From IMG/VR virus record IMGVR_UViG_3300031519_005527, positions 1-32,105 of that record: DNA of 32,105 nucleotides, one strand, 5' to 3'. The notes beneath the pieces were generated by a model. It saw only the letters and a list, made by a program, of their open reading frames with translations. It was not told the DNA's origin and did not search any database. The stretch is from a virus (Duplodnaviria > Caudoviricetes). The position numbers and the translations under genes are program-made. Numbering within the stretch: the stretch's first letter is position 1; every line of letters starts with the position of its first letter. Positions 1 through 32,105 of this stretch are shown here, one piece after another.

Positions 1-21
1 CATCTCCTAGTTCTAAAATAG

Positions 22-94
22 TGGACCCGCTCGGATTTGAACCGAGGACCGATCGGTTATGAGCCGACTGCTCTTACCCCTGAGCTACGGGTCC
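22..94 (-). tRNA. tRNA-Ile2 (anticodon CAU, lysidine type; elongator Met not fully excluded)
   Basis: Reverse complement GGACCCGTAGCTCAGGGGTAAGAGCAGTCGGCT-CAT-AACCGATCGGTCCTCGGTTCAAATCCGAGCGGGTCCA folds as a cloverleaf. The acceptor stem and anticodon arm resemble bacterial Ile2. No encoded CCA. Confidence 0.9.
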
Positions 95-600
95 ATCTTT
101 AAGTATTTTCTATATTTCTCAGGCATTCTATCAAAGTATTTTGTACTTGTCAAGGACTTTCTACCTTTATTCAAGTCGCTTGAACGTGCTACATTTATCA
201 GAAAGCAGGGTGCATGTTGTCTTGGATTGAACCCATCAACCTCAAGGTCGTCGTTTGGATTCATACATATACTCTTGTAATCCTTTATTCCATTTCTTTT
301 CAGAAGTTTATTTAGGAATGACTGGAATGGCGCTGTGTTCTCTTTCTCCAACTCAACTGGAATACCGTCCACAAACAGAGCGAACAGTCCAGAACTGTAT
401 CCATCGTCTATCATCTGCTTAACAACGTCAGGAAATACCTGGACATTCGAATCAAACACATCCACCAGCAACCTGCCCCTTGTTCGCTCTCCCTTGGAAA
501 AGGGGCAGGTTGCCATACCCGAAAACTCCTCCCTTGGAGTCTCGATGTATTCTTTGATGTAAGAGTGTATTCTCTCTATGGTGTTACTCTTTTCTACCAT
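85..600 (-). CDS. hypothetical protein, DUF1415-like
   Basis: 171 aa with a CPF motif near the N-terminus and NPRQHAP-like segment, reminiscent of DUF1415 proteins. The stop codon lies inside the tRNA. Confidence 0.6.
   Translation of the reverse strand: MVEKSNTIERIHSYIKEYIETPREEFSGMATCPFSKGERTRGRLLVDVFDSNVQVFPDVVKQMIDDGYSSGLFALFVDGIPVELEKENTAPFQSFLNKLLKRNGIKDYKSICMNPNDDLEVDGFNPRQHAPCFLINVARSSDLNKGRKSLTSTKYFDRMPEKYRKYLKMDP
125..153 (-). promoter_or_regulatory. sigma70 promoter inside the CDS, upstream of tRNA-Ile2
   Basis: TTGACA-17 nt-TAGAAT with TG extension, ending 30 nt before the tRNA 5' end. Confidence 0.7.
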
Positions 601-727
601 ACAAAATATCCAATCTGTTTTTTCTTTCTTGTTCTGGTGAAGTCGTTGACCTTGCGATCACCATCCTGACCAGTGCTGATGCTGTGTAAGCATAACAAGC
701 CACTAGGAGAACGTACTCTAACTTCAC
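584..727 (-). CDS. small membrane protein, 47 aa (not in ORF track)
   Basis: GTG start overlaps the ligase TGA (GTGA). Translation MKLEYVLLVACYAYTASALVRMVIARSTTSPEQERKNRLDILYGRKE fills the gap exactly. Confidence 0.65.
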   Translation of the reverse strand: MKLEYVLLVACYAYTASALVRMVIARSTTSPEQERKNRLDILYGRKE

Positions 728-1866
728 GCTGTTAGGAACCTGTAGAAGTTGCGGCACACCGTCCTAAAGTAGTTGACCCCACCTTCGTTCTCGTTGTGCA
801 ATTCATACAATACTTTGTAGTCGCCTGAATCATAGGCGTCATCCATCGTATCGTTGACGATATCTACCATTTTGTAGGCGGCCGCCCTTATTTCCTCTGG
901 AAGCATAAACATCATTTTATCTAGGCGACCCTTGATCATACAGTTCATGATGTATTTGTAGCACAACTTACTCTTGACCATCTCGCCGATGTAGTTAATG
1001 TACTTAAACTTGATAAGTTGCCCATTAAAGTTCATGACCCAACCCTCGTGATTTGACACTGAACGACTGCTAATCTCATCGACTAGATCATTCAGAGTCA
1101 TCTCACGAGACTCAGGACATATGAAGAGATGCGGCATTGCTTTGCAAGTATGCTCTAACTCTGTGAGTTTCAGCGACTCACCATCGGAATCATAAGCATT
1201 CAACAGGTATAGTGTTTCCACGTTGTCATAATCAACGAAGACCTTAGTGTAGGGGTGGATCAATTCCACTACAATAGACATAAGTTCCTTACCTACAGTC
1301 TTTTCTACCTGTTGAAAGTCCGAAAGAGTAAGCATGTTACCAGCAATCTCCGCACTAGTTGTTCCAAATTTACCTCGGGTGGAGGAACACAGTTCACCGT
1401 TATGGACAAAGTACTCAATCATATGTCCATCCGCTTTTTCTCGGGCGGTGTATTTACCTGTTCCAAACTTCTGGGTGAGTGCCTCGTATGTATTTTCCGG
1501 CAACTCACTGTAGTTAAAGAACTTCTCGAACCCGCGACTAACGAGAACTGGTTCCTCCACACTGAAGTCGTAGATCATACCACGCATATCGCGCAGGGGT
1601 TGTGACCACCCTTGATCCACTTCATGCAGTACATTGTGTGCCTGACCTGTATAGTTCAACAGGATCAGTTGACGCTCTTCATCAATGTCAAACCCTAGCA
1701 ACTCACCTGGGTTCTTCATGTCTGTGTGCTCAAGGTGTAGCAACTCCTTGAACTTCTGAGCATTTTCTCTCTTGAATGATGCCCACTTAGTCTTCTTGTC
1801 TTCGATAGTACGAATCTCTGAAGTGATAAGTTTAGCAATCACAGGCACGTTTGAATGTACTGACAC
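724..1866 (-). CDS. RNA ligase, T4 Rnl1-like
   Basis: Nucleotidyltransferase motifs: EKADG (I), STRG, VELIHP, LYLL, EGWV (IV), KFK (V). RBS GAAAGGA before GTG. Confidence 0.85.
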   Translation of the reverse strand: MSVHSNVPVIAKLITSEIRTIEDKKTKWASFKRENAQKFKELLHLEHTDMKNPGELLGFDIDEERQLILLNYTGQAHNVLHEVDQGWSQPLRDMRGMIYDFSVEEPVLVSRGFEKFFNYSELPENTYEALTQKFGTGKYTAREKADGHMIEYFVHNGELCSSTRGKFGTTSAEIAGNMLTLSDFQQVEKTVGKELMSIVVELIHPYTKVFVDYDNVETLYLLNAYDSDGESLKLTELEHTCKAMPHLFICPESREMTLNDLVDEISSRSVSNHEGWVMNFNGQLIKFKYINYIGEMVKSKLCYKYIMNCMIKGRLDKMMFMLPEEIRAAAYKMVDIVNDTMDDAYDSGDYKVLYELHNENEGGVNYFRTVCRNFYRFLTA

Positions 1867-1897
1867 GTTAATGTCCTTTCATTTAAGTTGTGAGAGT

Positions 1898-1926
1898 ATT
1901 ATATATTAACTTTGTTTATTTGTCAA
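1898..1926 (-). promoter_or_regulatory. perfect sigma70 consensus promoter
   Basis: TTGACA-17 nt-TATAAT upstream of the RNA ligase. Confidence 0.85.
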
Positions 1927-3146
1927 GACGATGATGAAAGTTTATCGACGAATCGCTTCTGTTGGGGGTGCCACTCATATGCAATGGCAAAACTTTCCTC
2001 AGAAGATAATTGCTTTTCAAATACAACCTTTTGAATCTTAGGGAAAGAGGTTCGGCATAACAATTCGCTTGTATTGTGCTCCAGGATCTCTTGAATGAAC
2101 TTCTGTCTACCGTGGTCTACAGACCTGACAGAAGAAATGTTAGAATCCATCGATTTTCCGATACGGGTAATCAACCATACGTCCCTGGATGTACCACCGG
2201 ATCTTTTCCAGACCTGGTACATTTGATTTTCGAACGCCTGTGGGTGAGCAGACATCACTAGCATGACGGGAGAGTCATCCACACCAGGATGAACCTGAGT
2301 CTGATTCATAGTGTTCCAATCATCGACAGGAAAGAATTCTTTCCACAAGTTTTTGCGCATCCCTTCAGTATTCGCAGATGGTAAAGGTTGTGACCTGTCG
2401 GCAGAAAATGCCTTATTGAGTACGTTACCGACAAAAGATCTATATTCCTCTCGGGCGTAGATCGTACCAGACTCGGTAATCAACCAATTCCTGCCCCAGT
2501 TCTTTTTCTTTTCCAGTGTCCAACTTAAAATCTGTGGATTTTCCTCACAAGCATATTCAAAATTACGTACGAGTTGATGTGGGAGATCCTCCTCTTTATT
2601 TTCTGGTCTTGTGCCATCCACCTCCTCGTTACCGATTCGTGCAAGTTTATTTGCAAACTTACGGATTTTCCAAGTTGGTGTGCCTTCTGGGAATTTAAAT
2701 TTAACCCAGTCGCACTTAGATTTAAACCCCTTTTCATTGATGGCATATTCATGCCCGCGCCCGCGCTCATTACCGATAGCAAAGTACACTAGACTTTCAA
2801 GTTCAGTGCCAAGAAGTATTCTTTTCCTTGGTTCCTCATACTTGTAGAAGGCAGTATACCACTTATGAGGATCATCCTCACCATTGACTCTCGATTGAAA
2901 GTCACTATAGTATTTTTCGGACCTTGGGGCAAAACTAGACATGTCCCACCCCTTTACAATCTCAACTTCCAGACCCTCGACCTGTACAAGTTCAGTCCAT
3001 CGAATGGACCTTGGATCTTCAACGTCTTTGCTGGGATTTATGTACCCCATATCCTCTACTTGTTTCCATACTTTTTCATAGTATTTATCTGTTTCTGTTT
3101 TTAGTTCAACAATTTTGGCAGTTGTTCTATTACTCATTGTCCCCAT
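1923..3146 (-). CDS. hypothetical protein (possible divergent ParB/Srx-like domain)
   Basis: 407 aa ORF with RBS AGGAG; the true start may be the ATG at 3137. AIGNER resembles the ParB GxxR motif, weakly. Confidence 0.6.
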   Translation of the reverse strand: MGTMSNRTTAKIVELKTETDKYYEKVWKQVEDMGYINPSKDVEDPRSIRWTELVQVEGLEVEIVKGWDMSSFAPRSEKYYSDFQSRVNGEDDPHKWYTAFYKYEEPRKRILLGTELESLVYFAIGNERGRGHEYAINEKGFKSKCDWVKFKFPEGTPTWKIRKFANKLARIGNEEVDGTRPENKEEDLPHQLVRNFEYACEENPQILSWTLEKKKNWGRNWLITESGTIYAREEYRSFVGNVLNKAFSADRSQPLPSANTEGMRKNLWKEFFPVDDWNTMNQTQVHPGVDDSPVMLVMSAHPQAFENQMYQVWKRSGGTSRDVWLITRIGKSMDSNISSVRSVDHGRQKFIQEILEHNTSELLCRTSFPKIQKVVFEKQLSSEESFAIAYEWHPQQKRFVDKLSSSS

Positions 3147-3163
3147 CTCCTCTTATCTTAATC

Positions 3164-3192
3164 ATCATATACTTTATTTGTTTATTTGTCAA
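3164..3192 (-). promoter_or_regulatory. sigma70 promoter
   Basis: TTGACA-17 nt-TATGAT in intergenic DNA. Confidence 0.75.
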
Positions 3193-3218
3193 GAACTTAT
3201 TTTGCTGACCACTTCAAT

Positions 3219-3247
3219 AATATAGCAAATCTTTTATCGTTTGTAAA
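3219..3247 (-). promoter_or_regulatory. sigma70 promoter (tandem with 3164..3192)
   Basis: TTTACA-17 nt-TATATT with TG extension. Confidence 0.6.
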
Positions 3248-3265
3248 GTCTTTTCTTTACTTTTT

Positions 3266-3460
3266 TTATACGTGTGGTGCGCCAAAAGGATACGCCGATG
3301 CAAGCACCACTCTTGAGAACTTAATAGATCCTCCGTGCTTCTTTGTTAGGTCTGAAACCTTCTTATCACAAATCTTCCTGGTCGCTATGATCTCTTGACT
3401 TCTTTCTGATCCGACACGATAGCGAACCCTGACTAAATCTTCAGGTGCTTTCTTCTTCAC
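3266..3460 (-). CDS. hypothetical basic protein
   Basis: 64 aa; GTGA overlap with the upstream gene. Confidence 0.55.
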   Translation of the reverse strand: MKKKAPEDLVRVRYRVGSERSQEIIATRKICDKKVSDLTKKHGGSIKFSRVVLASAYPFGAPHV

Positions 3461-3984
3461 TTAAAGTTCTTCTGAATCGCTTCGAAGATTATCTCTTCCA
3501 TGTTGAGTCCTTCGTAACTCTTGTCGGCGCGGACATCGTTTGCGACAACCTCAACTACTGTCTGATCCTCGACTCTGCACTGGACTACGGCATCATTGTT
3601 GAACATTGTCAAGTCTTCAAAGTTGACAACTCCAACCTTTCTCTTACCAGTATCAATAAGGATCATACGGTCGAATGTCTTGTCGGGTATACCGAGGTTT
3701 TTTCCTCTATGGTTTCTCAGTATCACCTTCTTTGTATGATGCGTGGTCGGTTGAAAAATAGTGCCCTGCAACTTACACTCGTAGCGAAGACCATCAGATC
3801 CTTCAAAGTCCATACCATCGGCAGTGTCGCCGACATACTTGAGATTACCGTTACTATACTTATCGATTGCCATTTCAACAATCTCTGTACGCAATGGTCG
3901 AGTCTGGTTGCGAGTGAGTGTACTGACAGAGTTGATGACTCCGAATACTTTCTTCCAATTTACATTCTTTTTTAAGTCAATCAT
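3457..3984 (-). CDS. PD-(D/E)xK nuclease-like protein
   Basis: Helix E (TEIVE), then GMDF...YECK, matching the restriction-endonuclease-fold catalytic pattern. ATGA-coupled to the upstream MTase. Confidence 0.55.
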   Translation of the reverse strand: MIDLKKNVNWKKVFGVINSVSTLTRNQTRPLRTEIVEMAIDKYSNGNLKYVGDTADGMDFEGSDGLRYECKLQGTIFQPTTHHTKKVILRNHRGKNLGIPDKTFDRMILIDTGKRKVGVVNFEDLTMFNNDAVVQCRVEDQTVVEVVANDVRADKSYEGLNMEEIIFEAIQKNFK

Positions 3985-4997
3985 TTGTCTCCCCCTATCA
4001 TCAGTATCTCTGTTGCCTTGGTTGCTGTGTGGGTATCATCTTCTTGTTTCTTCTTTCTACCCACGGTATATGTTATATCAAAGTATTCTATCTTGCAACC
4101 TTTATTTCTTTCTTCAAAGAAGTTATCTCCCCAATCACGGTTCGATAACAAAGAGTATGCTCCACTATCGCATGAATGATGAAAGAAGTCAAGCACTTTT
4201 TCTTGGAAATCGTCACTAAGTTCAGTTCCATAGTCAGCGAACGTCTTCTCATCATCAGACGCGGATCGGTAAGGAGGGTCTAGAAACACATATGATCCCT
4301 TACCGACATGCTCCATGGATTCACTGAAGTCATTGGAAGTTATTACAGAGTTCTGCAATGCCTCGTGCCACAACATCACGTTCTCTTTATTGTAAACCTC
4401 TTTATCATGTCGCATCAACCCGCAGGGCGTATTGAATCTTTCGTGCTCTGCGCCCATTTGCCAGACACCGTTGAATGCAGTCTTCATCAGAAAGTAGAGA
4501 GTTGCTGCCTCTTCGGTTCGGGACCAGTCGTTATAATCCTCTTGGTACATCTGTCTAACTTTAAAGAAGAAAGTTCTTCTTGTCTGTTGTTCTGAGAATA
4601 TCTTATGCCAATCGTACTTGTTGTGTGGCAACTTGTACTTCTTCTCCAAGTCGGCGTCCTTCATGCCAGTTGGATCATCAACCCATTCTACCTTACCGGA
4701 TGACCTATCTCTACGTTTTGGTGGAGACAAAGACATGTATTTTATAGCGAAGCGGTCAGTGATCTTTGTGAACTCATCGACATCATCTCTAATGGATTTG
4801 TATATGTTTACAATATCAGGGTTGATATCATTTATGTAGAACTCTGCATTCGGGTTTGTTTCATATGCCCATATGAACATGGCACCGCCGCCAAAGAAAG
4901 GTTCGTGATACTTATCGAACGCCGGTGGCAGGTATGGTCCGTACTCATTGTTTATTAATTTTGTCTTGCCGCCTGCCCACATGAATAATGGAGTCAT
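3981..4997 (-). CDS. DNA adenine methyltransferase, Dam/D12 family
   Basis: FMWAGGKT, EPFFGGGA (motif I), INDIN, FLDPPY (motif IV), EILM at the C-terminus. Confidence 0.92.
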   Translation of the reverse strand: MTPLFMWAGGKTKLINNEYGPYLPPAFDKYHEPFFGGGAMFIWAYETNPNAEFYINDINPDIVNIYKSIRDDVDEFTKITDRFAIKYMSLSPPKRRDRSSGKVEWVDDPTGMKDADLEKKYKLPHNKYDWHKIFSEQQTRRTFFFKVRQMYQEDYNDWSRTEEAATLYFLMKTAFNGVWQMGAEHERFNTPCGLMRHDKEVYNKENVMLWHEALQNSVITSNDFSESMEHVGKGSYVFLDPPYRSASDDEKTFADYGTELSDDFQEKVLDFFHHSCDSGAYSLLSNRDWGDNFFEERNKGCKIEYFDITYTVGRKKKQEDDTHTATKATEILMIGGDK

Positions 4998-5522
4998 CTA
5001 TTTACAACTGTCCAGAACATCCAGCATGATTCTGCTCACTTGTTCTTTGGTAAAACCGTCTGGACTCATGTGAAACTTAAAGTTCTCCCCCATTGTATAT
5101 TTCGCCAACCGAGACATCTTTTCCAAGCATTCACCCTTCTTTGCTCCCGCACCAGAACAGAAAGTTATATATTTGACGTCGGGGTTGATTGATTTTGCGA
5201 CCGATGCGTTTTTGAACCAGCGCTCGTTTGCGTTTCCAAGTAGGTTTTGCTTCTTGCCCTCGAAAACAGCAACGAGTCTGTCCCCTATGAACCATGATCC
5301 GCCGTCGGGTGCAAATCCGAAGCAATTTTCGCCCACAAGGTCTACCTTCATTTGATTGCTAAACTGTTTGATACTGCGAAAACCAGAGGTATTGGGTATG
5401 AGTTCGTCCGCACACTCTTTCAACAGCTTATCCATCTTTTTACTTTGTTCGTCATACGCTGTAGTACCTGCTTGGATACCGCCGTTGTATCCTTCATCTC
5501 TCTGTGATCTGTTAGACATCAT
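4998..5522 (-). CDS. EcoRI-like type II restriction endonuclease, minimal
   Basis: PDGG...VFEGKKQ...GNANERWFKN parallels EcoRI PDGG...AEAKHQ...GNAIERSHKN. Confidence 0.75.
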   Translation of the reverse strand: MMSNRSQRDEGYNGGIQAGTTAYDEQSKKMDKLLKECADELIPNTSGFRSIKQFSNQMKVDLVGENCFGFAPDGGSWFIGDRLVAVFEGKKQNLLGNANERWFKNASVAKSINPDVKYITFCSGAGAKKGECLEKMSRLAKYTMGENFKFHMSPDGFTKEQVSRIMLDVLDSCK

Positions 5523-6418
5523 TGTTCCCTTTCGTAGTTTGTTATTAGCAATTCTTTGCGCTCTTTTTGCGCTTCTGTATATACCTTACTAGATCGCATT
5601 GTATATGTCAAGTCCCAATCATTAAAATAATAATCTGCGTACCTTTTTCTTAGAACTTCATTTGAATTGTAAGTGATCATCCAATCATGCTCACATTCAA
5701 CTGAGTCTTCATAGAACCTCATGTGATCAAACCCTGAGTGCATGTCCCCGTTCTTACCATACAAGTCATCCTTGATATCATAAGGAGGGTCGAGAAAGAT
5801 AAAGCAATCATCCGCACCTTTGGCACTGAGTAGGTACTCGTAGTCAAGATTGGTAATCTTCCAGTCCTTGATGAGTTTAGAATATGCTGGCAACTTACTG
5901 ATACCATTCATGCTGAAGTTCTGCTCTGATGCCTGCTCCGAGAAAGAACTACTCTCCCCTAGTCCTGAGAAACTACACTTGTTCAGTATGTAAAAGTACA
6001 CTGCTTTAGTCAAGTTATCTGTAGATCCAGTTGAGATGTTACACTTGGCATGATTGAAAAGTTCTCTGTGCTTGTCGATCATTTCCAAGATGCTGGGATC
6101 CCAGTCAATCTTTGGAACCTTTTCCTTGCGTAAAGGTTTCGATACATACTCAATGGCACCCTTGATTCGTACTAACTCCTGATGTAGTTCTGGTCCTCTA
6201 TCTCTTAACTGAACCCAGAAGTTATACAGGTTATAATACGCATCGTTTACCCAGACCTTCGTGTTTGGTCTGGTCTGGGTTACATGCAATGCCATTGAAC
6301 CACCTCCAAGAAAGGGTTCCCGAAACTCACTGAAACTCTCTGGCAAGTCCGGACTCAATTTCTTAATCGCTCTTGACTTACCACCTGGATATCTCAATGG
6401 TGTCTTAAGACTTACCAT
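5519..6418 (-). CDS. dam: DNA adenine methyltransferase, phage Dam family
   Basis: KTPLRYPGGKSR, EPFLGGGS, FLDPPY, WMITYN, ELLITNY. Confidence 0.92.
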   Translation of the reverse strand: MVSLKTPLRYPGGKSRAIKKLSPDLPESFSEFREPFLGGGSMALHVTQTRPNTKVWVNDAYYNLYNFWVQLRDRGPELHQELVRIKGAIEYVSKPLRKEKVPKIDWDPSILEMIDKHRELFNHAKCNISTGSTDNLTKAVYFYILNKCSFSGLGESSSFSEQASEQNFSMNGISKLPAYSKLIKDWKITNLDYEYLLSAKGADDCFIFLDPPYDIKDDLYGKNGDMHSGFDHMRFYEDSVECEHDWMITYNSNEVLRKRYADYYFNDWDLTYTMRSSKVYTEAQKERKELLITNYEREQ

Positions 6419-6581
6419 TATCTCCTCCGAGTCTCTCTTCTAAGACCTCAAGTCTTTTTTTGTTTTCATTGATTCGAACAGTGTTAAGATTGATAACCTT
6501 ATCAATAACTCTAAGCATCAAGTAAAGGGATGCTACAAAACTAATAGCACCCACGATCCAGAAGATGTAAAACCAAGTCAT
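6405..6581 (-). CDS. small membrane protein, 58 aa (not in ORF track)
   Basis: MTWFYIFWIVGAISFVASLYLMLRVIDKVIN...; RBS GAAAGGA; TM helix followed by a coiled-coil-like tail. Confidence 0.7.
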   Translation of the reverse strand: MTWFYIFWIVGAISFVASLYLMLRVIDKVINLNTVRINENKKRLEVLEERLGGDNGKS

Positions 6582-6610
6582 AGTAATGTCCTTTCGGTTA
6601 AGTAAAAAAG

Positions 6611-6684
6611 CGCCCTGGGTAGGATTCGAACCTACGACCTGCGGATTAGAAGTCCGATGCTCTATCCAACTGAGCTACCAGGGC
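6611..6684 (-). tRNA. tRNA-Arg (UCU)
   Basis: Reverse complement GCCCTGGTAGCTCAGTTGGATAGAGCATCGGACT-TCT-AATCCGCAGGTCGTAGGTTCGAATCCTACCCAGGGCG. No encoded CCA. Confidence 0.95.
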
Positions 6685-6697
6685 ATTTGTTGTTGTA

Positions 6698-6726
6698 ACA
6701 ATAACACACTTATTTGTGTTTGTCAA
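6698..6726 (-). promoter_or_regulatory. sigma70 promoter for tRNA-Arg and the MTase cluster
   Basis: TTGACA-17 nt-TATTGT with TG extension, 13 nt before the tRNA. Confidence 0.7.
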
Positions 6727-6732
6727 TAGTTT

Positions 6733-6822
6733 TTATCTTGTTCTCTTGTACCAATCGTATGCGATACTTCCTAAGAATATCGCTGATGCCAAAACAGCAA
6801 CTTCACCAATTAAATCTAACAT
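6733..6822 (-). CDS. small membrane peptide, 29 aa (not in ORF track)
   Basis: MLDLIGEVAVLASAIFLGSIAYDWYKRTR; RBS GGAGGG; overlaps the upstream stop. Confidence 0.55.
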   Translation of the reverse strand: MLDLIGEVAVLASAIFLGSIAYDWYKRTR

Positions 6823-7061
6823 GCCAGTCCCTCCCTCTTTGCTCTAGACAGTATCCTCAGAAACTTTGCACGGACCCAATCACATTCACCTGTAACCAAC
6901 TTAATTCTACACCTATACTCGTCTCTGTGCCATTGGTACTCTTGGGTCGATGGCAAGTCATGAATCCTCTTGCTTTCTAGAACCATGCCAGTTTCTCCCG
7001 CTGCCCCAATTGGTCCGACAAGTTTCACCAAGTCACCAGAATCAAACTCTTGCCTAATCAT
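6816..7061 (-). CDS. small KOW/SH3-like protein (GDLV family)
   Basis: Start moved to the ATG at 7061 overlapping the upstream stop. FDSGDLVKLV...ETGMVL...DWV. Confidence 0.6.
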   Translation of the reverse strand: MIRQEFDSGDLVKLVGPIGAAGETGMVLESKRIHDLPSTQEYQWHRDEYRCRIKLVTGECDWVRAKFLRILSRAKREGLAC

Positions 7062-7494
7062 AATAGTCAAAATCCCAACCAGCAAAGGGATTGTCGCAGT
7101 CATCCGCAATACTTTCCTTCTTCTGGTCTTTTTTGTGAGAATCTTCTCGTTTTTGTTTTTCATCTAAGAACTTTCTTCTCAAAACTTCATACTTATCATT
7201 CTTTTCCATAACTCCATCTGTCATCGCGGGTAGATAGGAAGAGTCGCCGCCGTCATAGACCCTCACCTTTTTGCCGTCCTTGAGCGTAATGACAGGATCT
7301 GAATCCTTTACATCGGGATGCTCGGTGAACTCTCTAGCAGTTAGATCTTTCTTGACAATTCTTCGGCGACCATTCTGCTCTTCAACACTTTTTAATGTGA
7401 AGGTTCCATTGGAGGTTGCCTTCACTACTTTACGCTGACCGTTGAAAAGGTAAGAGATCTTTTCGATGGTTCTGCTTTCTTTTATCTTACTCAT
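7054..7494 (-). CDS. hypothetical protein
   Basis: ATGA overlap start at 7494; basic N-terminus and acidic-aromatic C-terminal tail (NPFAGWDFDYYD). Confidence 0.6.
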   Translation of the reverse strand: MSKIKESRTIEKISYLFNGQRKVVKATSNGTFTLKSVEEQNGRRRIVKKDLTAREFTEHPDVKDSDPVITLKDGKKVRVYDGGDSSYLPAMTDGVMEKNDKYEVLRRKFLDEKQKREDSHKKDQKKESIADDCDNPFAGWDFDYYD

Positions 7495-7715
7495 CGTACC
7501 CAAATTCCGTCCCTACAAACGTGATACTCGTCACAGACTTGCCTTTCAATTGATTCGTTCCAGCAGTAGTGTTCATTGCAGACCCTGACTCTTCCAGTGG
7601 TCCAATAACAATCTGTTTCGGTATATTCGTAATCTGGATGAAGTTCATCACACTCCTCGTCTAGCACGATGAGGCACCCCTGCAAAAACAAAACTAAAAA
7701 CAAAATATATTTCAT
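7491..7715 (-). CDS. Cys-rich putative lipoprotein
   Basis: Signal peptide with lipobox-like LQGC and six further Cys. Confidence 0.6.
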   Translation of the reverse strand: MKYILFLVLFLQGCLIVLDEECDELHPDYEYTETDCYWTTGRVRVCNEHYCWNESIERQVCDEYHVCRDGIWVR

Positions 7716-7724
7716 GACTCAACC

Positions 7725-7979
7725 CTATGCAGTTATTTGTAGTTCCCTAATACGCTTACACAGATTAGCATACTTTCTAGGCACATGTCCAGGTTTTTTT
7801 TGCTTAATCGAGTCTAATATGGGTTCTGCCCATTCATCGACTGATGGGACATAGACCAGGCATTTACCATCGATTGTAGAATACTTGTAGAACATCCCTT
7901 CCTGATCTCGGAGGTTCGTGTCGAACAAGTTGTAGTCTTCTAGAAAAACTACTGCTTCGCCTTTTTTAATCTCTGTCAC
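7725..7979 (-). CDS. hypothetical protein, KOW/SH3-like
   Basis: IKKGEAVVF...GMF...CLVY...EW; RBS AAGGA. Confidence 0.6.
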   Translation of the reverse strand: MTEIKKGEAVVFLEDYNLFDTNLRDQEGMFYKYSTIDGKCLVYVPSVDEWAEPILDSIKQKKPGHVPRKYANLCKRIRELQITA

Positions 7980-8023
7980 TTTTTATCCTTTTTTCTAGTG
8001 AATGAATCTTTACTGTTAATGCT

Positions 8024-8051
8024 ATTATACTCACCACGCTAAAAATGTCAA
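8024..8051 (-). promoter_or_regulatory. sigma70 promoter
   Basis: TTGACA-16 nt-TATAAT, intergenic. Confidence 0.75.
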
Positions 8052-8069
8052 GTAAAGCGCTGATCTTTA

Positions 8070-8276
8070 TTATATTCCAAAACCACATTTTAGGATCCCC
8101 CCTTTGCCCAACTTCTGAACCAATTTTGCGGAGTACCTGACCTTTTTGCCTTCTTTCGTTAAGACAACTACAACCTTCATCAACTTGTCATACGACAGTA
8201 AGAATCCTGGTCCTTGCCACGGTTGATCATCAGTGAGATGATACTCTTTGTATCTAACAAGATCGCCGACTTTCAT
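8070..8276 (-). CDS. small KOW/SH3-like protein (GDLV family)
   Basis: MKVGDLVRY...GPGFLL...VVVL..EGK; ATGA overlap start. Confidence 0.65.
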   Translation of the reverse strand: MKVGDLVRYKEYHLTDDQPWQGPGFLLSYDKLMKVVVVLTKEGKKVRYSAKLVQKLGKGGILKCGFGI

Positions 8277-8461
8277 TTTATTTCCCGCAAACTCCACAAC
8301 CAATGCTGCTCACGATGCCCATTCGTAAATAGGATCTTGACCTGCTTACCTTTCCAAGACAGTACCACTCCTGGTGTTGTGGTATCCACGAAACTAGACC
8401 AGTGCTTTTCGTCAAGTTTAACGAGCATACCTCTCTTCAGGTCTTTCTTCTTAACCTTCAA
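8273..8461 (-). CDS. small KOW/SH3-like protein
   Basis: Probable TTG start at 8461. LKRGMLVKL...PGVVL...VKILFTNG...HW..SL. Confidence 0.55.
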   Translation of the reverse strand: MKVKKKDLKRGMLVKLDEKHWSSFVDTTTPGVVLSWKGKQVKILFTNGHREQHWLWSLREIK

Positions 8462-8675
8462 TCTTAAATCGCCGTGAGAGATGACGAGCGATCTGATGGC
8501 AGGTGTGTAAATCGACATCTTTAATAGTCTCGTCCTTGTTCGCAATTTCCCTAACTTCAATGAATATTTTCTCGAAGTCATTAACCGCTTCGTCAAATGT
8601 TTTGGTGTCCAAGTTGTCGATAGTATACCCAGAAGTTTCAGATAAAATTACTCCACATTTATCAGAGTGTTCCAT
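8451..8675 (-). CDS. hypothetical protein
   Basis: Start moved to the ATG at 8675 to avoid a 100-nt overlap; predicted helical. Confidence 0.5.
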   Translation of the reverse strand: MEHSDKCGVILSETSGYTIDNLDTKTFDEAVNDFEKIFIEVREIANKDETIKDVDLHTCHQIARHLSRRFKIEG

Positions 8676-8908
8676 CTTCCACTTGTATCCTCTTCCTGTT
8701 CTTTTTTCTTTTCTTGTAAAGGACATTCTTGTTTTGTCAAACTCCATTCTTTAAATGATCTGATGGTTCCTGCGTTAGCACCATTTGACAAAAGAACATT
8801 GTAAAAGTCCTTATTCAAATAACCGACGATCTCACCAAAAACGTTCAAAGGTCTACCCCAAGGATAATCTCTGAGATAGACCTTATCACCGATATTGTAC
8901 TCCCTCAT
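8648..8908 (-). CDS. small KOW/SH3-like protein
   Basis: YNIGDKVYL...GEIVG...YNVLL.NG...WSL. Confidence 0.6.
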   Translation of the reverse strand: MREYNIGDKVYLRDYPWGRPLNVFGEIVGYLNKDFYNVLLSNGANAGTIRSFKEWSLTKQECPLQEKKKEQEEDTSGRWNTLINVE

Positions 8909-8925
8909 ACCCTAAATAGGGTATT

Positions 8926-9363
8926 TTACACTACTTTAACCAATTCAATCTCAAAATTAAGATCTTTTCCTGCCATTGGGTGATTAAAATCTACCGTAAC
9001 AGTCTGATCATCGATCGTGTTGATAACACCCCTTACTGGTTGTGACCCCACCTGCCCTTCGATTACGACGCCAGATTCAAACTGAAATCCTTCTGGAAAG
9101 TGCTCTTTGTTGACCACCTGGATCCCTTCGGGGTTGTGAGTTCCGTACGCTTGGTCGGCCGACAACGAAATGGATTTAGTTTCTCCCATCTTCATTCCCG
9201 AGACAGCACTGTCAAAACCAGGGATCATCTCCCCTGCACCCACAGTAAAACTGATTGGTTCTCCTCTTTCATATGAACTATCAAACGTCGATCCGTCCTT
9301 AAAAGTTCCCTTGTAATGTACCTGGACAGCACGTCCTTCTTTTGCGATTGTTTTCTTTCCCAT
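8926..9363 (-). CDS. FKBP-type peptidyl-prolyl isomerase (SlyD/FkpB-like, with insert-in-flap domain)
   Basis: VHYKG...DGSTFDSS...P..FTVG.GEMIPGFD...AYG...VDFNHPMAGKDLNFEIEL. Confidence 0.95.
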   Translation of the reverse strand: MGKKTIAKEGRAVQVHYKGTFKDGSTFDSSYERGEPISFTVGAGEMIPGFDSAVSGMKMGETKSISLSADQAYGTHNPEGIQVVNKEHFPEGFQFESGVVIEGQVGSQPVRGVINTIDDQTVTVDFNHPMAGKDLNFEIELVKVV

Positions 9364-9425
9364 TTTTACTTCTCCTAACTTGTTTAATGTATCGATCTAT
9401 TCTTCAATGTCACTTCTCTAATTGT

Positions 9426-9986
9426 TCAACTGGACTCTCCTTTTTCGATTATAGAGTGCTTCCAGCACACTGGTTGATAGGATTCTGCTCCGCCGACCAG
9501 GATATCCTTATCTTGTTCGCCGAGTCTCTTTGTGTAATGAGCGTCTCGATCACACTCCGAACACACGGCAGGGCACACGTCTATACTGGTTGCCCAAGGT
9601 AATAAATCCTTTACCTCTCGGAAGGGCATATAACCCGTTGGGTGAGAGGACAGTTGCAGGGTAGACACGAGAATGTTCTTGCCTCGTTTGTACAATTCAA
9701 GACACGCTTTGGCGGATCCTGGGATCATAAACAATTCATCGACTGCTATCACATCTGCTCGCATACCCTGTTCCAATATCTCAGATCCTGATTTTACCAA
9801 TATGGATGTGTGCTCCTGCCCCTTATGCGTAACCACCTTGTTGTATGAATACCTATCGTCAATGTCAGGTTTAAACAAGATGACCTCCTTGTGCTGGTAC
9901 CTATACCTCTCTAGTGCGGCAAGCATTCTGGTTGTCTTGCCTCCGAACATTGGTCCAGTAAATATTTTAAGTTCAGGTGGTTTCAT
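9426..9986 (-). CDS. tdk: thymidine kinase
   Basis: GPMFGGKTT P-loop, FKP.IDDRY, VDE, CxxC, VGGAESY.PVC..H. Confidence 0.95.
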   Translation of the reverse strand: MKPPELKIFTGPMFGGKTTRMLAALERYRYQHKEVILFKPDIDDRYSYNKVVTHKGQEHTSILVKSGSEILEQGMRADVIAVDELFMIPGSAKACLELYKRGKNILVSTLQLSSHPTGYMPFREVKDLLPWATSIDVCPAVCSECDRDAHYTKRLGEQDKDILVGGAESYQPVCWKHSIIEKGESS

Positions 9987-9990
9987 TTCT

Positions 9991-10962
9991 TCAAGTCTCC
10001 AAAATGTCCTTAATCATTTCTTCAATCTCTAAACGAGAAACAGACGCAGTTTGCTGTTCGTCGATGACTAGATCGAATGTTTTCGGGACATACTCGCCCT
10101 CGAAAAGTACGTGTTCGTTTTCTGCAAAAAACCTATAACAGGTTTCGGTCTTGTCTTCTGTCGTAGACATTTCCGACTTGAACTCCTCAAACAGATCTTC
10201 ATGCCGTTCAGGTATATCGTAATCCACCGACTCCTCAAGATACAAATAAGCAGCGATTGCTGTTGCATCCTCGATGTTTGTCGCTGTCCTTGACGTTGAT
10301 GTCGTGTGCGGCCGCTTATAGCAGTCGATCGTAGAGACTGCTGTCACAACGTAAATTGGGGCACCATCATCGGTATCGCCGAGTCTCTCTTCTCTGATCT
10401 TCTCCTCCTCTGCCTCTCGATTATACCTAGCAGCCATCTCTTCGTTTGTCTCTTGGTGAGTAGTGTATTTCTTTACAACACACCCGATGAGCGATGTTTC
10501 AAATCCAATGTGACGTTTCTTGCCCTTGAACATTGCCTTGAACTCGTCCTCTGTGAGAACTTGTGTTGTAACCCAACTGGTTGCCCAGTCTTGGTTGCTT
10601 GCTTCGATAATCTCATAGCAATGGTTTGGAGTAACCAAGCGCTCGTCGTCATCGTCAAGAATAATGTGCTCCCTGGTAGGAGACGAATTGGCGAATGCTT
10701 TCTTGCCTGGTCCTGAATAACAACTAAACATGTCAAGGTTTCCGATGCCTCTTACAGGAACCTCAGAAGACTTATTCATAAAGTTATTTGTTCTGTTGTA
10801 AGTCTTCACAATAGCACCTGGGACAATACCCTTCTCTGTTAGTTCTTTTACATAGTCTTGCCTAACCAAGGTGCTTACTTTTAGGTAAGTCTGGAAGTCA
10901 TTGCTAAATTCTTCACACTGCTTGCGAGTGTGCTTTGGGTTTCCACAATAGGTACACGGCAT
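9991..10962 (-). CDS. hypothetical protein with N-terminal CCHC zinc knuckle
   Basis: CTYCGNPKHTRKQC = CX2CX4HX4C. Confidence 0.7.
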   Translation of the reverse strand: MPCTYCGNPKHTRKQCEEFSNDFQTYLKVSTLVRQDYVKELTEKGIVPGAIVKTYNRTNNFMNKSSEVPVRGIGNLDMFSCYSGPGKKAFANSSPTREHIILDDDDERLVTPNHCYEIIEASNQDWATSWVTTQVLTEDEFKAMFKGKKRHIGFETSLIGCVVKKYTTHQETNEEMAARYNREAEEEKIREERLGDTDDGAPIYVVTAVSTIDCYKRPHTTSTSRTATNIEDATAIAAYLYLEESVDYDIPERHEDLFEEFKSEMSTTEDKTETCYRFFAENEHVLFEGEYVPKTFDLVIDEQQTASVSRLEIEEMIKDILET

Positions 10963-11204
10963 TATCTATTTCTCCTCATTTTTCTCTTTAGATAAGAACC
11001 TACGTCAGAGTCGGGAACTTCGATCTCTTCGAGTCCTTCCTCTTCTTCGGGTTCAATGATATCCCAAAACACATTATCCATATTACTCTTTCCATACAGA
11101 GATGTCAAGTGTTTTTTTAAAGTCGTTTCTGTTCTAAATGGAAAATTGGAAGTTTTGGAATTCCAGTCTCCATTGTCATAATAATAAATTGTTGCCTCAA
11201 TCAT
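10962..11204 (-). CDS. hypothetical protein
   Basis: 80 aa, coupled to both neighbours. Confidence 0.6.
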   Translation of the reverse strand: MIEATIYYYDNGDWNSKTSNFPFRTETTLKKHLTSLYGKSNMDNVFWDIIEPEEEEGLEEIEVPDSDVGSYLKRKMRRNR

Positions 11205-13120: not shown

Positions 13121-13747
13121 TTATTCACCCAAAATCTTTTTCTGAATTGATCTTACTGCCATTCTCTGGAGTCGTGGAAGTTTCTCGTATGTTTCCAATT
13201 CTACGCCTTCCTTTGTCATAAAGGGTCTATTGTTAACTCTAGTCATGAACTCGCCTTCTTGACCCATTGCCAGGTCTCCTTGCATAGCCTTCTTGCCATA
13301 ACCAGGATACTCAGCGTTGTTTGTTCCGATCAGGTGTGCGTCTTTGCCGCCCTTTGGAAACACGATAACAGAGTCCTGGCAGAACTTCTCACCCAGGGCA
13401 GCGATTCTACTCACAAAGTCTGCATCATCATTGATGTTTACGCAGAACAAACTGTTCTCTTTAACCTCTTTCGCCAATGGTGTACCAAACTTCTCTATGT
13501 AAGATCCGTCAACCTTGGTAACACCATACCCAAGACCAAGCAATGTCGCCTTGAGGTCTCGGTTTCTCTCCATGTTATCACCACCAATCACTGCCTTCTC
13601 TGTGCATTGGTCTGATTCGTCTGTATCATCTCTGAACGCTGTGATCACAGCACAGTCGTGCTCTTGGATGTGCTTGTAGACCCTACTTAATCCAGATTCA
13701 TTCACGAACCCTCTCCATTCATTTATAATTTTCTTCATGTCAGTCAT
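13121..13747 (-). CDS. conserved phage protein with IxE/VxE leader, probably virion-associated
   Basis: MKKIINEWRGFVNESGLSR leader; ITAFR...RN..L...L...GY...G.Y.E...E.S...F.QDSV core (DUF3293-like pattern). Confidence 0.55.
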   Translation of the reverse strand: MTDMKKIINEWRGFVNESGLSRVYKHIQEHDCAVITAFRDDTDESDQCTEKAVIGGDNMERNRDLKATLLGLGYGVTKVDGSYIEKFGTPLAKEVKENSLFCVNINDDADFVSRIAALGEKFCQDSVIVFPKGGKDAHLIGTNNAEYPGYGKKAMQGDLAMGQEGEFMTRVNNRPFMTKEGVELETYEKLPRLQRMAVRSIQKKILGE

Positions 13748-20256: not shown

Positions 20257-21273
20257 TTATGCATCTTGTGATGCTTTTCTTACCTGACCTGCTTTTCTGG
20301 TGGTCAAGGCCTTTGCCTTGGCTGCGCCTGAATAGCGCCCTGTGGTTTGTGTAGTTGCATCGGTTTTGAACCTGTCTGCTGCGGCATTGAGTTCCTGTAG
20401 TTTCACGAAGAGATCCTTAAACTTGATGTTTAGTGCTTCGAACAACTTCTTGGTGTAATCTTCTGCATTACTCATGTCTAAAGTTCCAAGGTCGAGCATT
20501 GTTTTATCGGCCGCGATTTTCTCAACCTCTTCCCTTGACAGGTTAAATGATCCGCCTTCAAACTCTCCGTCCTTGTTCTTTTTAGCGCCCTGTACGTATC
20601 TATTCTTAATGTTCTTGGTCAAGGTGTTTTTCAACGCAGCAACGCTATTAGCGTCAAAAACAAATTGGTAAAATTTGATTTTCGCGTTGGCGGGATACTT
20701 TTCGCCAACGATATACTTTATTTGTCCGTTATCATTCACTTCTTTTTTCAAATTTTCAAAAGACCCTGCAATTCTAGTGCCTGGCTTGATGAATTTGAGA
20801 GACACCCTACCACCTTCAAAAGTCACGTCGGCAAGATTCGTGGTCGTGCCCTTTTCCACCGTGCCACCAAAAGTCTCTGCAATAAACATCTCAAACTGAT
20901 ACCCTTTTTGAGATGCGCCGCCGCCCTTGTTGGTTGCTGCGTTGCCCAAAAGATTAAGCAAGGTTCTGATAACATCTATCTTTGCTATAACCTCGACATG
21001 CTTGTCCACATCAATGTCACTTGTCAGCACAGCATTGAGACCCTTAATGAAATCACCCAACTGGTTGATATCACCGCCACCTATATTCGAGATTGCAGAT
21101 CTGAATCTCTTAAGTGCCGGTGGTGCAGTTGCATCTGCAGTATCATTCAACCAATTTGGTTCCATCACAATTGGTACATACTCTACAGACTTAGGTTTCT
21201 TAGATTCCAATACAGGTTCAGTGGTCTTACCCACCTGGGCAAACATTTCAACTAAAAGGTCTAGGTCTTTCAT
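20257..21273 (-). CDS. hypothetical protein with LxE leader and restriction-endonuclease-like core
   Basis: LLVE/VLE leader; KGYQFE.FIA..FGG......LADV......VSLK. Confidence 0.55.
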   Translation of the reverse strand: MKDLDLLVEMFAQVGKTTEPVLESKKPKSVEYVPIVMEPNWLNDTADATAPPALKRFRSAISNIGGGDINQLGDFIKGLNAVLTSDIDVDKHVEVIAKIDVIRTLLNLLGNAATNKGGGASQKGYQFEMFIAETFGGTVEKGTTTNLADVTFEGGRVSLKFIKPGTRIAGSFENLKKEVNDNGQIKYIVGEKYPANAKIKFYQFVFDANSVAALKNTLTKNIKNRYVQGAKKNKDGEFEGGSFNLSREEVEKIAADKTMLDLGTLDMSNAEDYTKKLFEALNIKFKDLFVKLQELNAAADRFKTDATTQTTGRYSGAAKAKALTTRKAGQVRKASQDA

Positions 21274-29506: not shown

Positions 29507-30324
29507 AGTACTTCCCTTTCGTCTTTCTTAAATGAATTACTAAAACACCATCTCCAGTCACCATTGACCTTTATAGGATCAGTCATCATCTCCCGATAAC
29601 CGTCCCATGTGGATATGTCATAATAATAATCCAACTCGTATGTTCCACTATTCTCAATCATTATATCATCACTGAACACTTTGTCAAGTGTATAGTCGCT
29701 CTTTGTATCCATTCTTTTAAATAGATATGAACAATGTTTAAACTGTCTTGCGTTGAAACTAAATCCAAGGTGGGCACCTGTCCTGGCACTTTGTCCATTA
29801 TAAGTGAGAAACATCGAATCGTTACTTTTCACTAGGGATCTAACTTCTACGTTTTTCGGATAATAGACACCATATGGCATTGATACATAATATCTGTGTG
29901 GGGTTATCCACTTGCTTATCTTGTCACTTATCGTGTAACTCGCATACACTCCCTCCATGACTGACACCCCAATGCCCTCCTTGTTCATGTGCCTATAAGA
30001 GAGGGGGACGTAATATATCGGAACGTGTCTTCTGAGGTCTGAAGAGAACTTTGCATACTTTGCCCTCTCGTGTTGTGCCAGGTTTAAGACAAAATCTCCG
30101 CAGACCTTCTTGAGGACTGGAGCGATCGCCTCGTCACAAACTATCCATATTGTTTTGCATCCGAGATAAGAACACTCTGCTATGCTTCTTTGTACAGCAT
30201 AATAACCATTTGCGATAGGTAGCATACTCGGGTGGAGCAAGAGGTCGATATCAGACTGGACTTTAGATACTGGAATTATCCCTGCGATATGCTTTGAGGA
30301 TGTCATCTCGTTTTTGTCTGTCAT
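29503..30324 (-). CDS. degenerate sugar-nucleotidyltransferase-like (GT-A fold) protein
   Basis: IAGIIPV....HPSMLPI...AV..SI.EC..LGCKTIWIV...YDISTWDGY. Lacks the canonical GxGxR. Confidence 0.55.
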   Translation of the reverse strand: MTDKNEMTSSKHIAGIIPVSKVQSDIDLLLHPSMLPIANGYYAVQRSIAECSYLGCKTIWIVCDEAIAPVLKKVCGDFVLNLAQHERAKYAKFSSDLRRHVPIYYVPLSYRHMNKEGIGVSVMEGVYASYTISDKISKWITPHRYYVSMPYGVYYPKNVEVRSLVKSNDSMFLTYNGQSARTGAHLGFSFNARQFKHCSYLFKRMDTKSDYTLDKVFSDDIMIENSGTYELDYYYDISTWDGYREMMTDPIKVNGDWRWCFSNSFKKDEREVL

Positions 30325-31018
30325 AGTACTCAACCTTCTCATTGCTTCTGTACACCACTTCCTCTAGTGGGGTCACCCTTCTCTCGATAACTTCAAGATT
30401 TGGGTTCCGCCTAGATTCGCCGCGTGTTATGGGTCTGTGTAGTCTTTCGTCTTTTAAGAGTTCTTTCTGACTCACGAACCTAACAATAGTATCAGAATAA
30501 TCAAAGTTTGTCAACTGTTCTTTCGTTAGGTTGCAAACTGCTACCACTTCTTTTTTACCAAAGCATCTAATAAGTTTAACAAACGACTCCTTTGGAAAGA
30601 TTGTATCTATATTAGTCACATTACAAAATTTTAGTCTCATAAAATCCATAGTTTTATATAGATCTTCATGTTCTACCTTGTGTATGTCCAAGTCTGTCCT
30701 GATGTTTTGGGACGGAAAGAGGTGACACTTCTTGAATTCTATGCTGGTATCTCTAAATCCGATATTGTTCTTCTCCACTCTCAAGAAGTCAAGCGTATCG
30801 GGGTTGATGACCAATCCGCGCATCGAGCACAAGAACTTTAACATTGACCAGGCGTCTACTACCTCTGTCGTATTGAGTGTTTCGACTCGTACCGGGTGAT
30901 CGAACACGACGTCTACATCTGGTTCACTCTGGTCAACGAGTATAATTGGGACACTCTCAGAGTACGCCTTGACTAGAGCGTGGACACAAGATCCAACTAT
31001 TACCTCTTCTAGTAACAT
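30263..31018 (-). CDS. hypothetical protein with degenerate Rossmann/FAD-binding-like N-terminus
   Basis: VIVGSCVHALVKAY....PIILVD pattern. Confidence 0.5.
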   Translation of the reverse strand: MLLEEVIVGSCVHALVKAYSESVPIILVDQSEPDVDVVFDHPVRVETLNTTEVVDAWSMLKFLCSMRGLVINPDTLDFLRVEKNNIGFRDTSIEFKKCHLFPSQNIRTDLDIHKVEHEDLYKTMDFMRLKFCNVTNIDTIFPKESFVKLIRCFGKKEVVAVCNLTKEQLTNFDYSDTIVRFVSQKELLKDERLHRPITRGESRRNPNLEVIERRVTPLEEVVYRSNEKVEYYDRQKRDDILKAYRRDNSSI

Positions 31019-32105
31019 ACCATCAAGTCATAGTCATAGCGATTAGAATGCAACGCTGGTTGGAACATAGAATCTTGATCGTCAGGTAGGCATATCTCGT
31101 CGAGAATAGACATAAGATCATTGTACATCTGCTCGGTACTATCAGTCAATACAAATGTGTCACCACCAGTTGGTTGCGTGTATCTGACCCATCGATTCTG
31201 GTAGTATGACCTAGTGAAGACATACAGTTTAGTGTTTGGAGACGCAGACAGGGCAGTGATGAGCGGTGCCGGGTCCAAGACGGGGTCCAAGAATGATTGG
31301 TCTTCCTCATCTGTAAATACAATTATTATTCTGTCTGCCTCGCTCCTCCAGTTCATCAAGAAGTCTCGAAGGACAGGCATAGAATCTATCATGTGAAATC
31401 TATCTGCCCAAGATGCGGTCGAGAGGTCGTATGGAAGACTCGTAGAAATGGTTCTTAGCGAAAGGTAGATCGCGTCCCTCAGCATCTCAGACGTCGTGCC
31501 GCCGAATGACCCGGCGGAAGAAAATGCTGCCATAAAGTCCGTGAAACTAACAATGTCTGCTTCCCTTTTCAACCACTCAGTCTGTTGGCTCGAGTGCAAA
31601 CCTTCCACAGGAAATGATCTAGGACCGGTAATCAACCCCCACTTTAACTTCTGTTCTGCAGAGAACTGACTAGCGAACCTATTCATCGCCGTTCGGACTG
31701 CATTAATACTGTACTCCATTGACCCAGACCAATCGACAATAAAAAGGATGTCTGTATCTGGAATTGCTTCACCAAAGTCCGTGGTTCCGTCACAGTCATT
31801 GTCAGCACCATCGCATATCTCTCTGCTCGGAACAATCTCTCCAGCGCAGAAATCGATAAGCAAGTCTCCGTTCGATAGTTCACCAAACCACTGTCCTTCT
31901 AGGCAAAGCATCTCGCCGAGTGAACATACACCGATGCCACCAGTTCCCTCTGGTCCAGAGTAGCATGGTTTGGCAAGATCTTCGTCAACTAGGTCGTCGC
32001 AGTCTTCATCAAAGTTATTGCAAACTTCTGGGTTGACTGGGATGCCAAGTAGTGCGTTGCACGCTTCTGGATCATCAGCAGGGACTAGTTCCGGAGGTAA
32101 CCAAG
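31009..32105 (-). CDS. Cys/Asp-repeat protein with C-terminal VWA domain (5' truncated)
   Basis: Frame is open to the window edge. Repeats EVCNNFDEDCDDLVDE and EICDGADNDCDGTTD, with CYSGPEGTGGIGVC between them; MIDAS DWSGS and FTDE. Confidence 0.85.
   Translation of the reverse strand, partial: WLPPELVPADDPEACNALLGIPVNPEVCNNFDEDCDDLVDEDLAKPCYSGPEGTGGIGVCSLGEMLCLEGQWFGELSNGDLLIDFCAGEIVPSREICDGADNDCDGTTDFGEAIPDTDILFIVDWSGSMEYSINAVRTAMNRFASQFSAEQKLKWGLITGPRSFPVEGLHSSQQTEWLKREADIVSFTDFMAAFSSAGSFGGTTSEMLRDAIYLSLRTISTSLPYDLSTASWADRFHMIDSMPVLRDFLMNWRSEADRIIIVFTDEEDQSFLDPVLDPAPLITALSASPNTKLYVFTRSYYQNRWVRYTQPTGGDTFVLTDSTEQMYNDLMSILDEICLPDDQDSMFQPALHSNRYDYDLMVCY

Follow-up and report, generated by a model that had tools for sequence, protein, structure and literature searches.

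The subject of this report is a stretch of 32,105 nucleotides (hereafter the window; IMG/VR record IMGVR_UViG_3300031519_005527, Duplodnaviria; Caudoviricetes), a fragment of a large marine tailed phage in which the tetramers of the form RGCY (R, purine; Y, pyrimidine; thus AGCT, GGCC, AGCC and GGCT) were nearly eliminated by selection. Two genes of one operon, a D12-class DNA methylase (MT2) and a small nuclease (NUC), accompany this loss in many unrelated aquatic phages. They probably form the phage's own RGCY-directed type II restriction-modification (R-M) system, and selection against likely self-cutting would have stripped the genome of its sites.

The window (43.2% GC) contains 25 RGCY words (AGCT 7, GGCC 9, AGCC 4, GGCT 5) against about 308 expected under a dinucleotide model (ratio 0.08), and the largest RGCY-free gap extends over 4545 base pairs (bp). 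An initial annotation, made by eye, had reported seven AGCT (at 83, 5425, 6673, 17786, 18366, 24337 and 27398, two of them in tRNA genes), about nine GGCC and about nine AGCC or GGCT, and had found AGCA, AGCG, TGCT and CGCT to be common; the recount returned exactly these word counts and positions, with the two tRNA sites being those at 83 (tRNA-Met) and 6673 (tRNA-Arg), and the four neighbouring words are indeed plentiful (130, 69, 183 and 89, respectively). The near-elimination it described also withstood correction for composition. Ratios under a maximal-order Markov model were 0.14 for AGCT, 0.10 for AGCC/GGCT and 0.23 for GGCC, and the RGCY words make up four of the five lowest-z tetramers of the window, the fifth being TGCA, whose low count is a compensation effect. 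Similarly, synonymous codon shuffling of 50 hand-picked genes (coding strand) gave 246 expected RGCY for 21 observed, with a deficit in all three reading frames and for each word (AGCT 6 observed for 78.7 expected, GGCT 2 for 68.4, AGCC 5 for 56.8, GGCC 8 for 41.9; z from -6 to -10). Three surviving sites are located in the two tRNA genes (Table 1), four of the 25 fall in one variable gene encoding a 338-aa protein, and across the window's clade CGGCCG is nearly spared, representing 72 of 224 GGCC versus 90 of 1658 in controls. This placement of the survivors fits an enzyme with a flank preference.

Two causes had been put forward in the initial annotation, long selection by an RGCY-specific nuclease and mutational decay of methylated cytosines. 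Codon usage bears out the first as far as selection is concerned, the identity of the nuclease being our proposal: RGCY was removed through synonymous codon choice, by transversions as well as transitions. After Lys, Glu, Gln, Met and Trp, chosen as their codons necessarily end in a purine, the window has 0.30 alanine GCY per 100 codons, compared with 3.17 in three control relatives (G029, G027 and G023), whereas alanine GCR stands at 5.03 versus 3.16. Before a pyrimidine, glycine is encoded by GGA at 0.385 in the window versus 0.167 in controls, and by GGT at 0.329 versus 0.306. Deamination of methyl-cytosine at RGCY would be in line with the excess of RGTY (1.14) and RACY (1.24) over the codon shuffle, a mild excess that is indeed present; however, RGCR (1.22) and YGCY (1.37) are as high, and these escapes are transversions, which deamination cannot produce. 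Moreover, alanine codons were purged too (12 observed for 94 expected in the codon shuffle) at positions where deamination would alter the amino acid, and no C5 methylase (PF00145) was detected in any of 40 relative records, many of them fragments and one more than 90% complete, nor among the 34 window proteins scanned. Decay can thus hardly be the explanation and is rejected. A beta-class N4/N6 methylase (PF01555) was also considered as the RGCY writer and discarded, as the eight matching records among these 40 include some with and some without RGCY loss.

The candidate enzymes are encoded in the window by four consecutive minus-strand genes that abut or overlap, MT2, ECO, MT1 and NUC (Table 1), and MT2 and NUC are in the same operon. 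Since MT2 and NUC directly adjoin in most relatives, ECO and MT1 likely represent an insert between them. MT2 matches PF02086 (E 7e-26) and its gene contains no RGCY at all. It appears to belong to a PF02086 branch distinct from true Dam: it scores 82.5 bits, below the TIGR00571 dam cut-off of 114.85 that MT1 exceeds, its top PADLOC model (PDLC03247) differs from that of MT1, and two MT2 carriers (G041 and G043) have no GATC. Its top PADLOC models are common to a paralog from a GGCC-purged relative, and no characterised enzyme was present among the best 120 of 4275 homologs of this GGCC-type paralog. Membership in PF02086 does not imply an adenine target, because Sll0729 (M.Ssp6803II), a PF02086 protein annotated as Dam-like, makes N4-methylcytosine (m4C) in GG(m4C)C (PMC6105098). 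The initial annotation had taken both methylases for Dam-family adenine enzymes with no bearing on the signal, and had accordingly implied an unseen host or phage system. The adenine assignment stands for MT1 and probably fails for MT2, whose presence tracks RGCY loss; no unseen system is required, though one may still contribute, as a PF02086 methylase and a nuclease of restriction fold sit in the window itself.

The structural model of NUC (pLDDT 92.4) was compared by Foldseek with the PDB only; its top matches were Eco15I, NaeI, DpnI and NhoI, with PvuII and EcoRV lower, and the nearest named Atlas clusters were DpnI, PDDEXK_16, Bsp6I and PvuII. D59, E69 and K71 are at least 90% conserved in alignments of 74 sequences, with the same spacing as D58, E68 and K70 of PvuII. 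The model is consistent with a PD-(D/E)xK restriction endonuclease with its catalytic residues intact. No relevant Pfam match and no Pfam restriction family were obtained with 112 members, no PADLOC match with 13 members and the divergent copy of G017, and neither PDB sequence matches nor cluster names were informative; NUC is thus a nuclease family without a name, apparently viral. As for ECO, its profile matched EcoRI chains only in the PDB, weakly (E 0.007), and its target likely has an AATT core: the AATT ratio is 0.49 for the window, 0.39 for G003 and 0.24 for L150 versus 0.76-0.85 in seven other records. AATT is also low (0.39-0.56) in G001, G002, G012 and G018, fragments in which the pair was not seen. 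MT1 and ECO co-occur in G003 and G049.

Table 1. Features of the window discussed in the text.
Feature	Position	Strand	Remark
RGCY-poor fragment of large marine DnaE/GroEL-encoding phage	1..32105		25 sites, 0.08 of expectation
MT2, D12-class (PF02086) DNA methylase, 299 aa	5519..6418	-	predicted N4-cytosine methylase for RGCY
NUC, PD-(D/E)xK nuclease, 175 aa	3457..3984	-	predicted cognate RGCY restriction endonuclease
ECO, EcoRI-like nuclease, 174 aa	4998..5522	-	second R-M pair, between MT2 and NUC
MT1, Dam-family N6-adenine methylase, ECO partner	3981..4997	-	TIGR00571 above cut-off
tRNA-Met	21..94	-	carries two surviving RGCY sites (62, 83)
tRNA-Arg	6610..6684	-	carries one surviving AGCT (6673)
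S-adenosylmethionine lyase-like gene	13121..13747	-	PF23780 E 7.7e-11, above cut-off
338-aa variable gene	20257..21273	-	between GroEL and ClpP
VWA protein	31009..32103	-	Cu-binding_MopE motif

Within the phage family, RGCY loss goes with MT2. Of the 569 relatives returned by a DnaE search, 77 loci were retained, and 15 family records carry MT2 (E<1e-50), seven found through this search and eight through searches with MT2 or NUC. All 15 have RGCY at 0.01-0.32 of expectation, whereas eight of the nine records at least 65% complete and lacking MT2 are at 0.88-1.04, six of them as measured on loci of 20-23 kb; the ninth (G013, 0.16) ends about 1.3 kb before the cassette slot. On a DnaE tree (FastTree; 66 of 81 rows, duplicates including L002 being removed), RGCY loss is found in three places, the window's clade, L021 and G041, the last on a long branch, with MT2 at each. 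The MT2 of G041 is 80% identical to that of the window while its DnaE is distant, which suggests a transfer of MT2 between lineages. NUC adjoins MT2 in each of the 13 family loci whose sequence continues downstream. Paralogs of MT2 at 34-36% identity (G004, G007 and G010) occur where GGCC is lost and AGCC kept. One record, L002 (RGCY 0.54), was considered as a relaxed lineage and set aside: half of it is 99.9% identical to the RGCY-free L001 and the rest is RGCY-normal, with a sharp switch within the VWA gene (G002/L002) that denotes a chimera or a recent recombinant.

Other relatives show the same logic with other words. HinP1I targets GCGC and MspI targets CCGG; relative G006 encodes a HinP1I-like nuclease with a methylase and has GCGC at 2/57, and relative G010 encodes a MspI-like nuclease with a methylase and has CCGG at 10/35, so that the loss of a phage's own site along with its own cassette holds in this family. 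Methylases of the family mostly adjoin a small nuclease-like gene in exchangeable slots (L078-L084, L131, L276, L277), the neighbours being HinP1I-like, MspI-like, weakly MunI-like, weakly PvuII-like or without a name. Lineages among L001-L077 each purge different tetramers (GGCC, GATC, CCGG, TCGA, GCGC, CGCG).

Outside the family, the best 80 of 260 MT2 loci and the best 80 of 83 NUC loci were examined, two sets that hold near-duplicates and partly overlap. Among the MT2 loci, RGCY is below 0.7 in all 80 and below 0.5 in 75, and in four of the remaining five the loss is confined to AGCT. Four loci with AGCT-only loss (L197, L201, L203 and L204) carry MT2 homologs at 49% identity, possibly of narrowed specificity. 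The NUC loci have a median RGCY of 0.115, with 78 of 80 below 0.35, and MT2 is present in 74; four of the remaining six stop at or near a contig edge, and L379 and L384 have room for MT2 and lack it. As in type II R-M systems, where a methylase gene is linked to a separate nuclease gene, NUC lies within 150 bp of a full-length MT2 match in 68 of 70 loci, whereas just 9 of the 65 distant MT2 loci have an adjacent NUC. NUC is thus tied to MT2 while MT2 is often alone, the asymmetry expected of an R-M pair. By cluster, RGCY stands at 0.136 with NUC versus 0.216 without adjacent NUC (16 versus 15 clusters, p=0.001, the clusters being not independent and phylogeny uncorrected), and four of five mixed clusters go in the same direction. 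MT2 and NUC hence co-occur with RGCY loss across unrelated phages, a co-occurrence from which, taken alone, we infer that MT2 may protect, and NUC may cut, the same RGCY site.

Cultured myoviruses extend the association for MT2. MT2 of the window and the cyanophage gene 'dam' (T4-GC 161) share about 50% identity; 456 records of the phage collection match, mostly from Synechococcus and Prochlorococcus phages. Although 'dam' is annotated as a DNA adenine methylase, its T4-like carriers have lost RGCY and mostly keep GATC, and an adjacent NUC is mostly absent. Among 14 cultured myoviruses chosen, with RGCY measured on parts of 25-50 kb, MT2 is present in ten, nine of which are at 0.11-0.29; the tenth, ACG-2014f, has a more distant copy and is at 0.59. 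The freshwater phage S-CRM01, without MT2, is RGCY-normal (0.90). In S-PM2 (W04, 94107-94930) the MT2 homolog seems split over two frames, and no other close carrier has RGCY as high (0.29). CCGG is absent from 10 of the 14 over the 25-50 kb examined (L236, L255, L280, L293-L310). P-HM2 and MED4-213, of the genus Eurybiavirus, have MT2 homologs at 46.6% identity, and S-SM1 and S-SCSM1 are among the phages that carry NUC.

Methylation measured in marine viruses concerns the same motif. RGCY was the commonest methylated viral motif in one survey based on SMRT sequencing, found in nine marine Myoviridae-like viral genomes and one bin of 0% completeness, with 17-69% of sites called methylated, as m4C in seven genomes and as C5-methylcytosine (m5C) in two; nearly all viral methylases were left unmatched to motifs (PMC8919816). 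An M.AvaVII- or M.Ssp6803II-like gene is listed for six of the nine (V9, V14, V21, V22, V34 and V59) in the 12 of 16 M.AvaVII rows available, which do not cover V1, and for V21, a Eurybiavirus, the M.AvaVII-like enzyme is the sole methylase (PMC8919816). As in the window, RGCY counts are low in six of these genomes, being 0.10-0.23 or 0.20-0.45 times a GC-only expectation, depending on whether both strands or one were counted. The portion of that article consulted names no partner nuclease, and neither 'depletion' nor 'avoidance' appears anywhere in its main text (PMC8919816).

Several observations weigh against MT2-NUC as the agent of RGCY loss. S-SM2 (0.27), S-SSM7 (0.27) and HTVC008M (0.23; 40 kb each) are depleted, and no MT2, NUC, D12, C5 or N4 methylase was found in their complete genomes; NUC was found in two of the 14 cultured myoviruses, far from MT2. 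Outside the window's family, NUC therefore cannot be the sole present-day cause, and the depletion of these three phages could come from a lost ancestral cassette or from pressure by other phages or hosts. Within the family, G027 (GATC 0/359) and G013 (CCGG 0/143) show no matching cassette, and G041 lacks GATC, CCGG, CGCG and nine hexamers over 145 kb with one D12 methylase found; such purges without a cassette point to strong outside restriction pressure. The Foldseek scores of NUC are also modest (E ~1e-3, TM 0.3-0.47) and include methyl-dependent enzymes, so that the fold by itself would be compatible with a methyl-dependent nuclease. Methyl-dependent nucleases such as DpnI, NhoI and Eco15I are, however, not known to be paired with a protective methylase, in contrast to NUC with its MT2 partner. 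Finally, V20 and V24 are RGCY-methylated with no such methylase listed, and their mark was called m5C (PMC8919816).

These points lend weight to outside restriction, whereby the host or co-infecting phages would encode cutters of RGCY, or of AGCT and GGCC, with site loss and MT2 as defences and NUC as a passenger or an enzyme with another target. The three cultured phages without either gene and the purges of G041, G027 and G013 are what it would predict, and avoidance of host type II sites is widespread in lytic phages (PMC6286503). It accounts poorly for the rarity of NUC without MT2 and for the deeper loss where NUC is present; on the DnaE tree, loss follows the cassette, and the sole non-viral RGCY-methylated bin is that of 0% completeness (PMC8919816). 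Furthermore, AGCC/GGCT are depleted as AGCT is, which AluI and HaeIII types alone would not bring about. We keep outside restriction as a rival and consider it unlikely for the window. Concerning G041 (L237-L244), AGCT and GGCC are absent as well, along with the palindromes ATCGAT, CACGTG, CCATGG, CTCGAG, CTGCAG, CTTAAG, GACGTC, GGCGCC and GTCGAC, which suggests a host rich in restriction systems.

Alternatively, the MT2 mark could itself be costly, by exposing DNA to a host methyl-directed nuclease of the McrBC type or by interfering with replication, NUC being incidental. Cyanophages with MT2 in which NUC was not found are still 3-9-fold depleted in RGCY, and the CGGCCG bias of the survivors would also agree with such a cost. 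The near-obligate linkage of NUC to MT2 is left unexplained, however, genomes without MT2 are depleted too, and Synechocystis is reported to retain 38,512 GGCC motifs despite m4C, a number that represents no deficit for its genome size and GC. This alternative appears quite improbable.

With MT2-NUC as an R-M system of the phage itself, MT2 would write RG(m4C)Y and NUC would cut unmethylated RGCY, a target met about once per 64 bp in DNA of even composition, thereby shredding host DNA and the DNA of unprotected co-infecting phages. Marking would be incomplete on rapidly replicating phage DNA (compare the 17-69% of sites in PMC8919816), each RGCY kept would consequently be a risk, and removal by codon choice would follow. 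Where only the methylase or neither gene is present, the phage would be protected, would still be avoiding such cutters, or would show depletion as a legacy.

MT2-NUC would work like the chlorovirus system CviJI, to which it is likened by predicted target and gene pairing. M.CviJI is a C5 cytosine methylase, and such a partner is absent from the relatives and window proteins scanned; MT2-NUC is therefore not classed as a CviJI member, its methylase being of the D12 class and predicted to make m4C, in a tailed bacteriophage. CviJI is a virus-encoded frequent cutter of RGCY with a companion methylase; the restriction enzymes of chloroviruses presumably break down the DNA of the host at an early stage of infection, and do not cause viral mutual exclusion (PMC7019647). 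M.Ssp6803II and DmtB of cyanobacteria resemble MT2 in family and Dam-like annotation and modify N4-cytosine in GGCC, a subset of RGCY, but they are orphan chromosomal enzymes restricted to GGCC (PMC6105098), whereas MT2 is encoded by a phage together with a linked nuclease, and its predicted targets are all four RGCY words. Selective removal of a 4-bp type II site recalls the avoidance described in lytic phages, classically against host enzymes (PMC6286503), whereas here it tracks the phage's own cassette. Virus-borne R-M and site avoidance are thus already known (PMC7019647, PMC6286503). In the open-licence literature, no report was found of the MT2-NUC cassette, of the NUC family, of tailed phages depleted in RGCY or of an RGCY activity for cyanophage 'dam'. 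We tentatively advance a wider proposal, about which we remain somewhat doubtful: the RG(m4C)Y mark, so far without an assigned writer, would be made by cyanophage 'dam' and its relatives, and NUC would represent a new family of frequent cutters with RGCY as target, apparently confined to phages; the two would form a mobile self/non-self system, convergent with CviJI, by which large aquatic phages destroy the DNA of hosts and rivals without hydroxymethylcytosine, and the cutter would be common enough that cassette-free marine myoviruses avoid RGCY.

The window also encodes a DnaE-type polymerase, GroEL, ClpP, IMPDH/GMP reductase, dUTPase, thymidine kinase, UvdE, an RNA ligase, a peptidoglycan-binding protein and two tRNAs, and genome sizes of about 180 kb follow from the CheckV estimates for relatives. 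Most of 1-14000 is also represented in contigs from four other runs, of marine or brine origin, among which single contigs extend over 2819-5892 (X1) and over the whole methylase region 3177-6682 (X5, with 116 differing letters). Because contigs of other runs span the same region, the methylase stretch is no assembly artefact. No RNA run was present among the listed data sets holding window sequence. The S-adenosylmethionine lyase-like gene coexists with two S-adenosylmethionine-dependent methylases, is also found in G012, G043 and G045 and may limit methylation. The 338-aa gene has an acidic-lysine nuclease-like motif by eye and no family match; in GGCC-purged relatives its slot holds a replacing gene followed by the GGCC-type methylase paralog. 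Relative G029 (96% complete, RGCY-normal) shows joint depletion of GTNNAC hexamers and lacks CTCGAG and GAGCTC. Three matches to Legionellales and Acidiferrobacteraceae bins were tried as a route to the host and rejected, as they look like binned phage contigs and are RGCY-normal. The VWA protein carries a Cu-binding_MopE motif, a repeat presumably frequent in Myxococcota and thus a possible host lead.

If the proposed assignments are correct, the cassette offers a candidate for the enzyme behind the motif most commonly methylated in marine viruses, which was left unmatched in PMC8919816. It also casts doubt on the annotation of several hundred cyanophage genes as 'Dam' and adds a compact nuclease family, as yet without a name, with a predicted target. 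The use of the RGCY signature for host matching, envisaged in the initial annotation, becomes doubtful, as the signature goes with a cassette that moves between phages infecting different hosts. These results suggest that word loss in phages can reflect their own weapons and not just those of the host, which makes avoided sites a less reliable guide to the host. If confirmed, an RGCY cutter would give marine phages a means of breaking down the DNA of their hosts.

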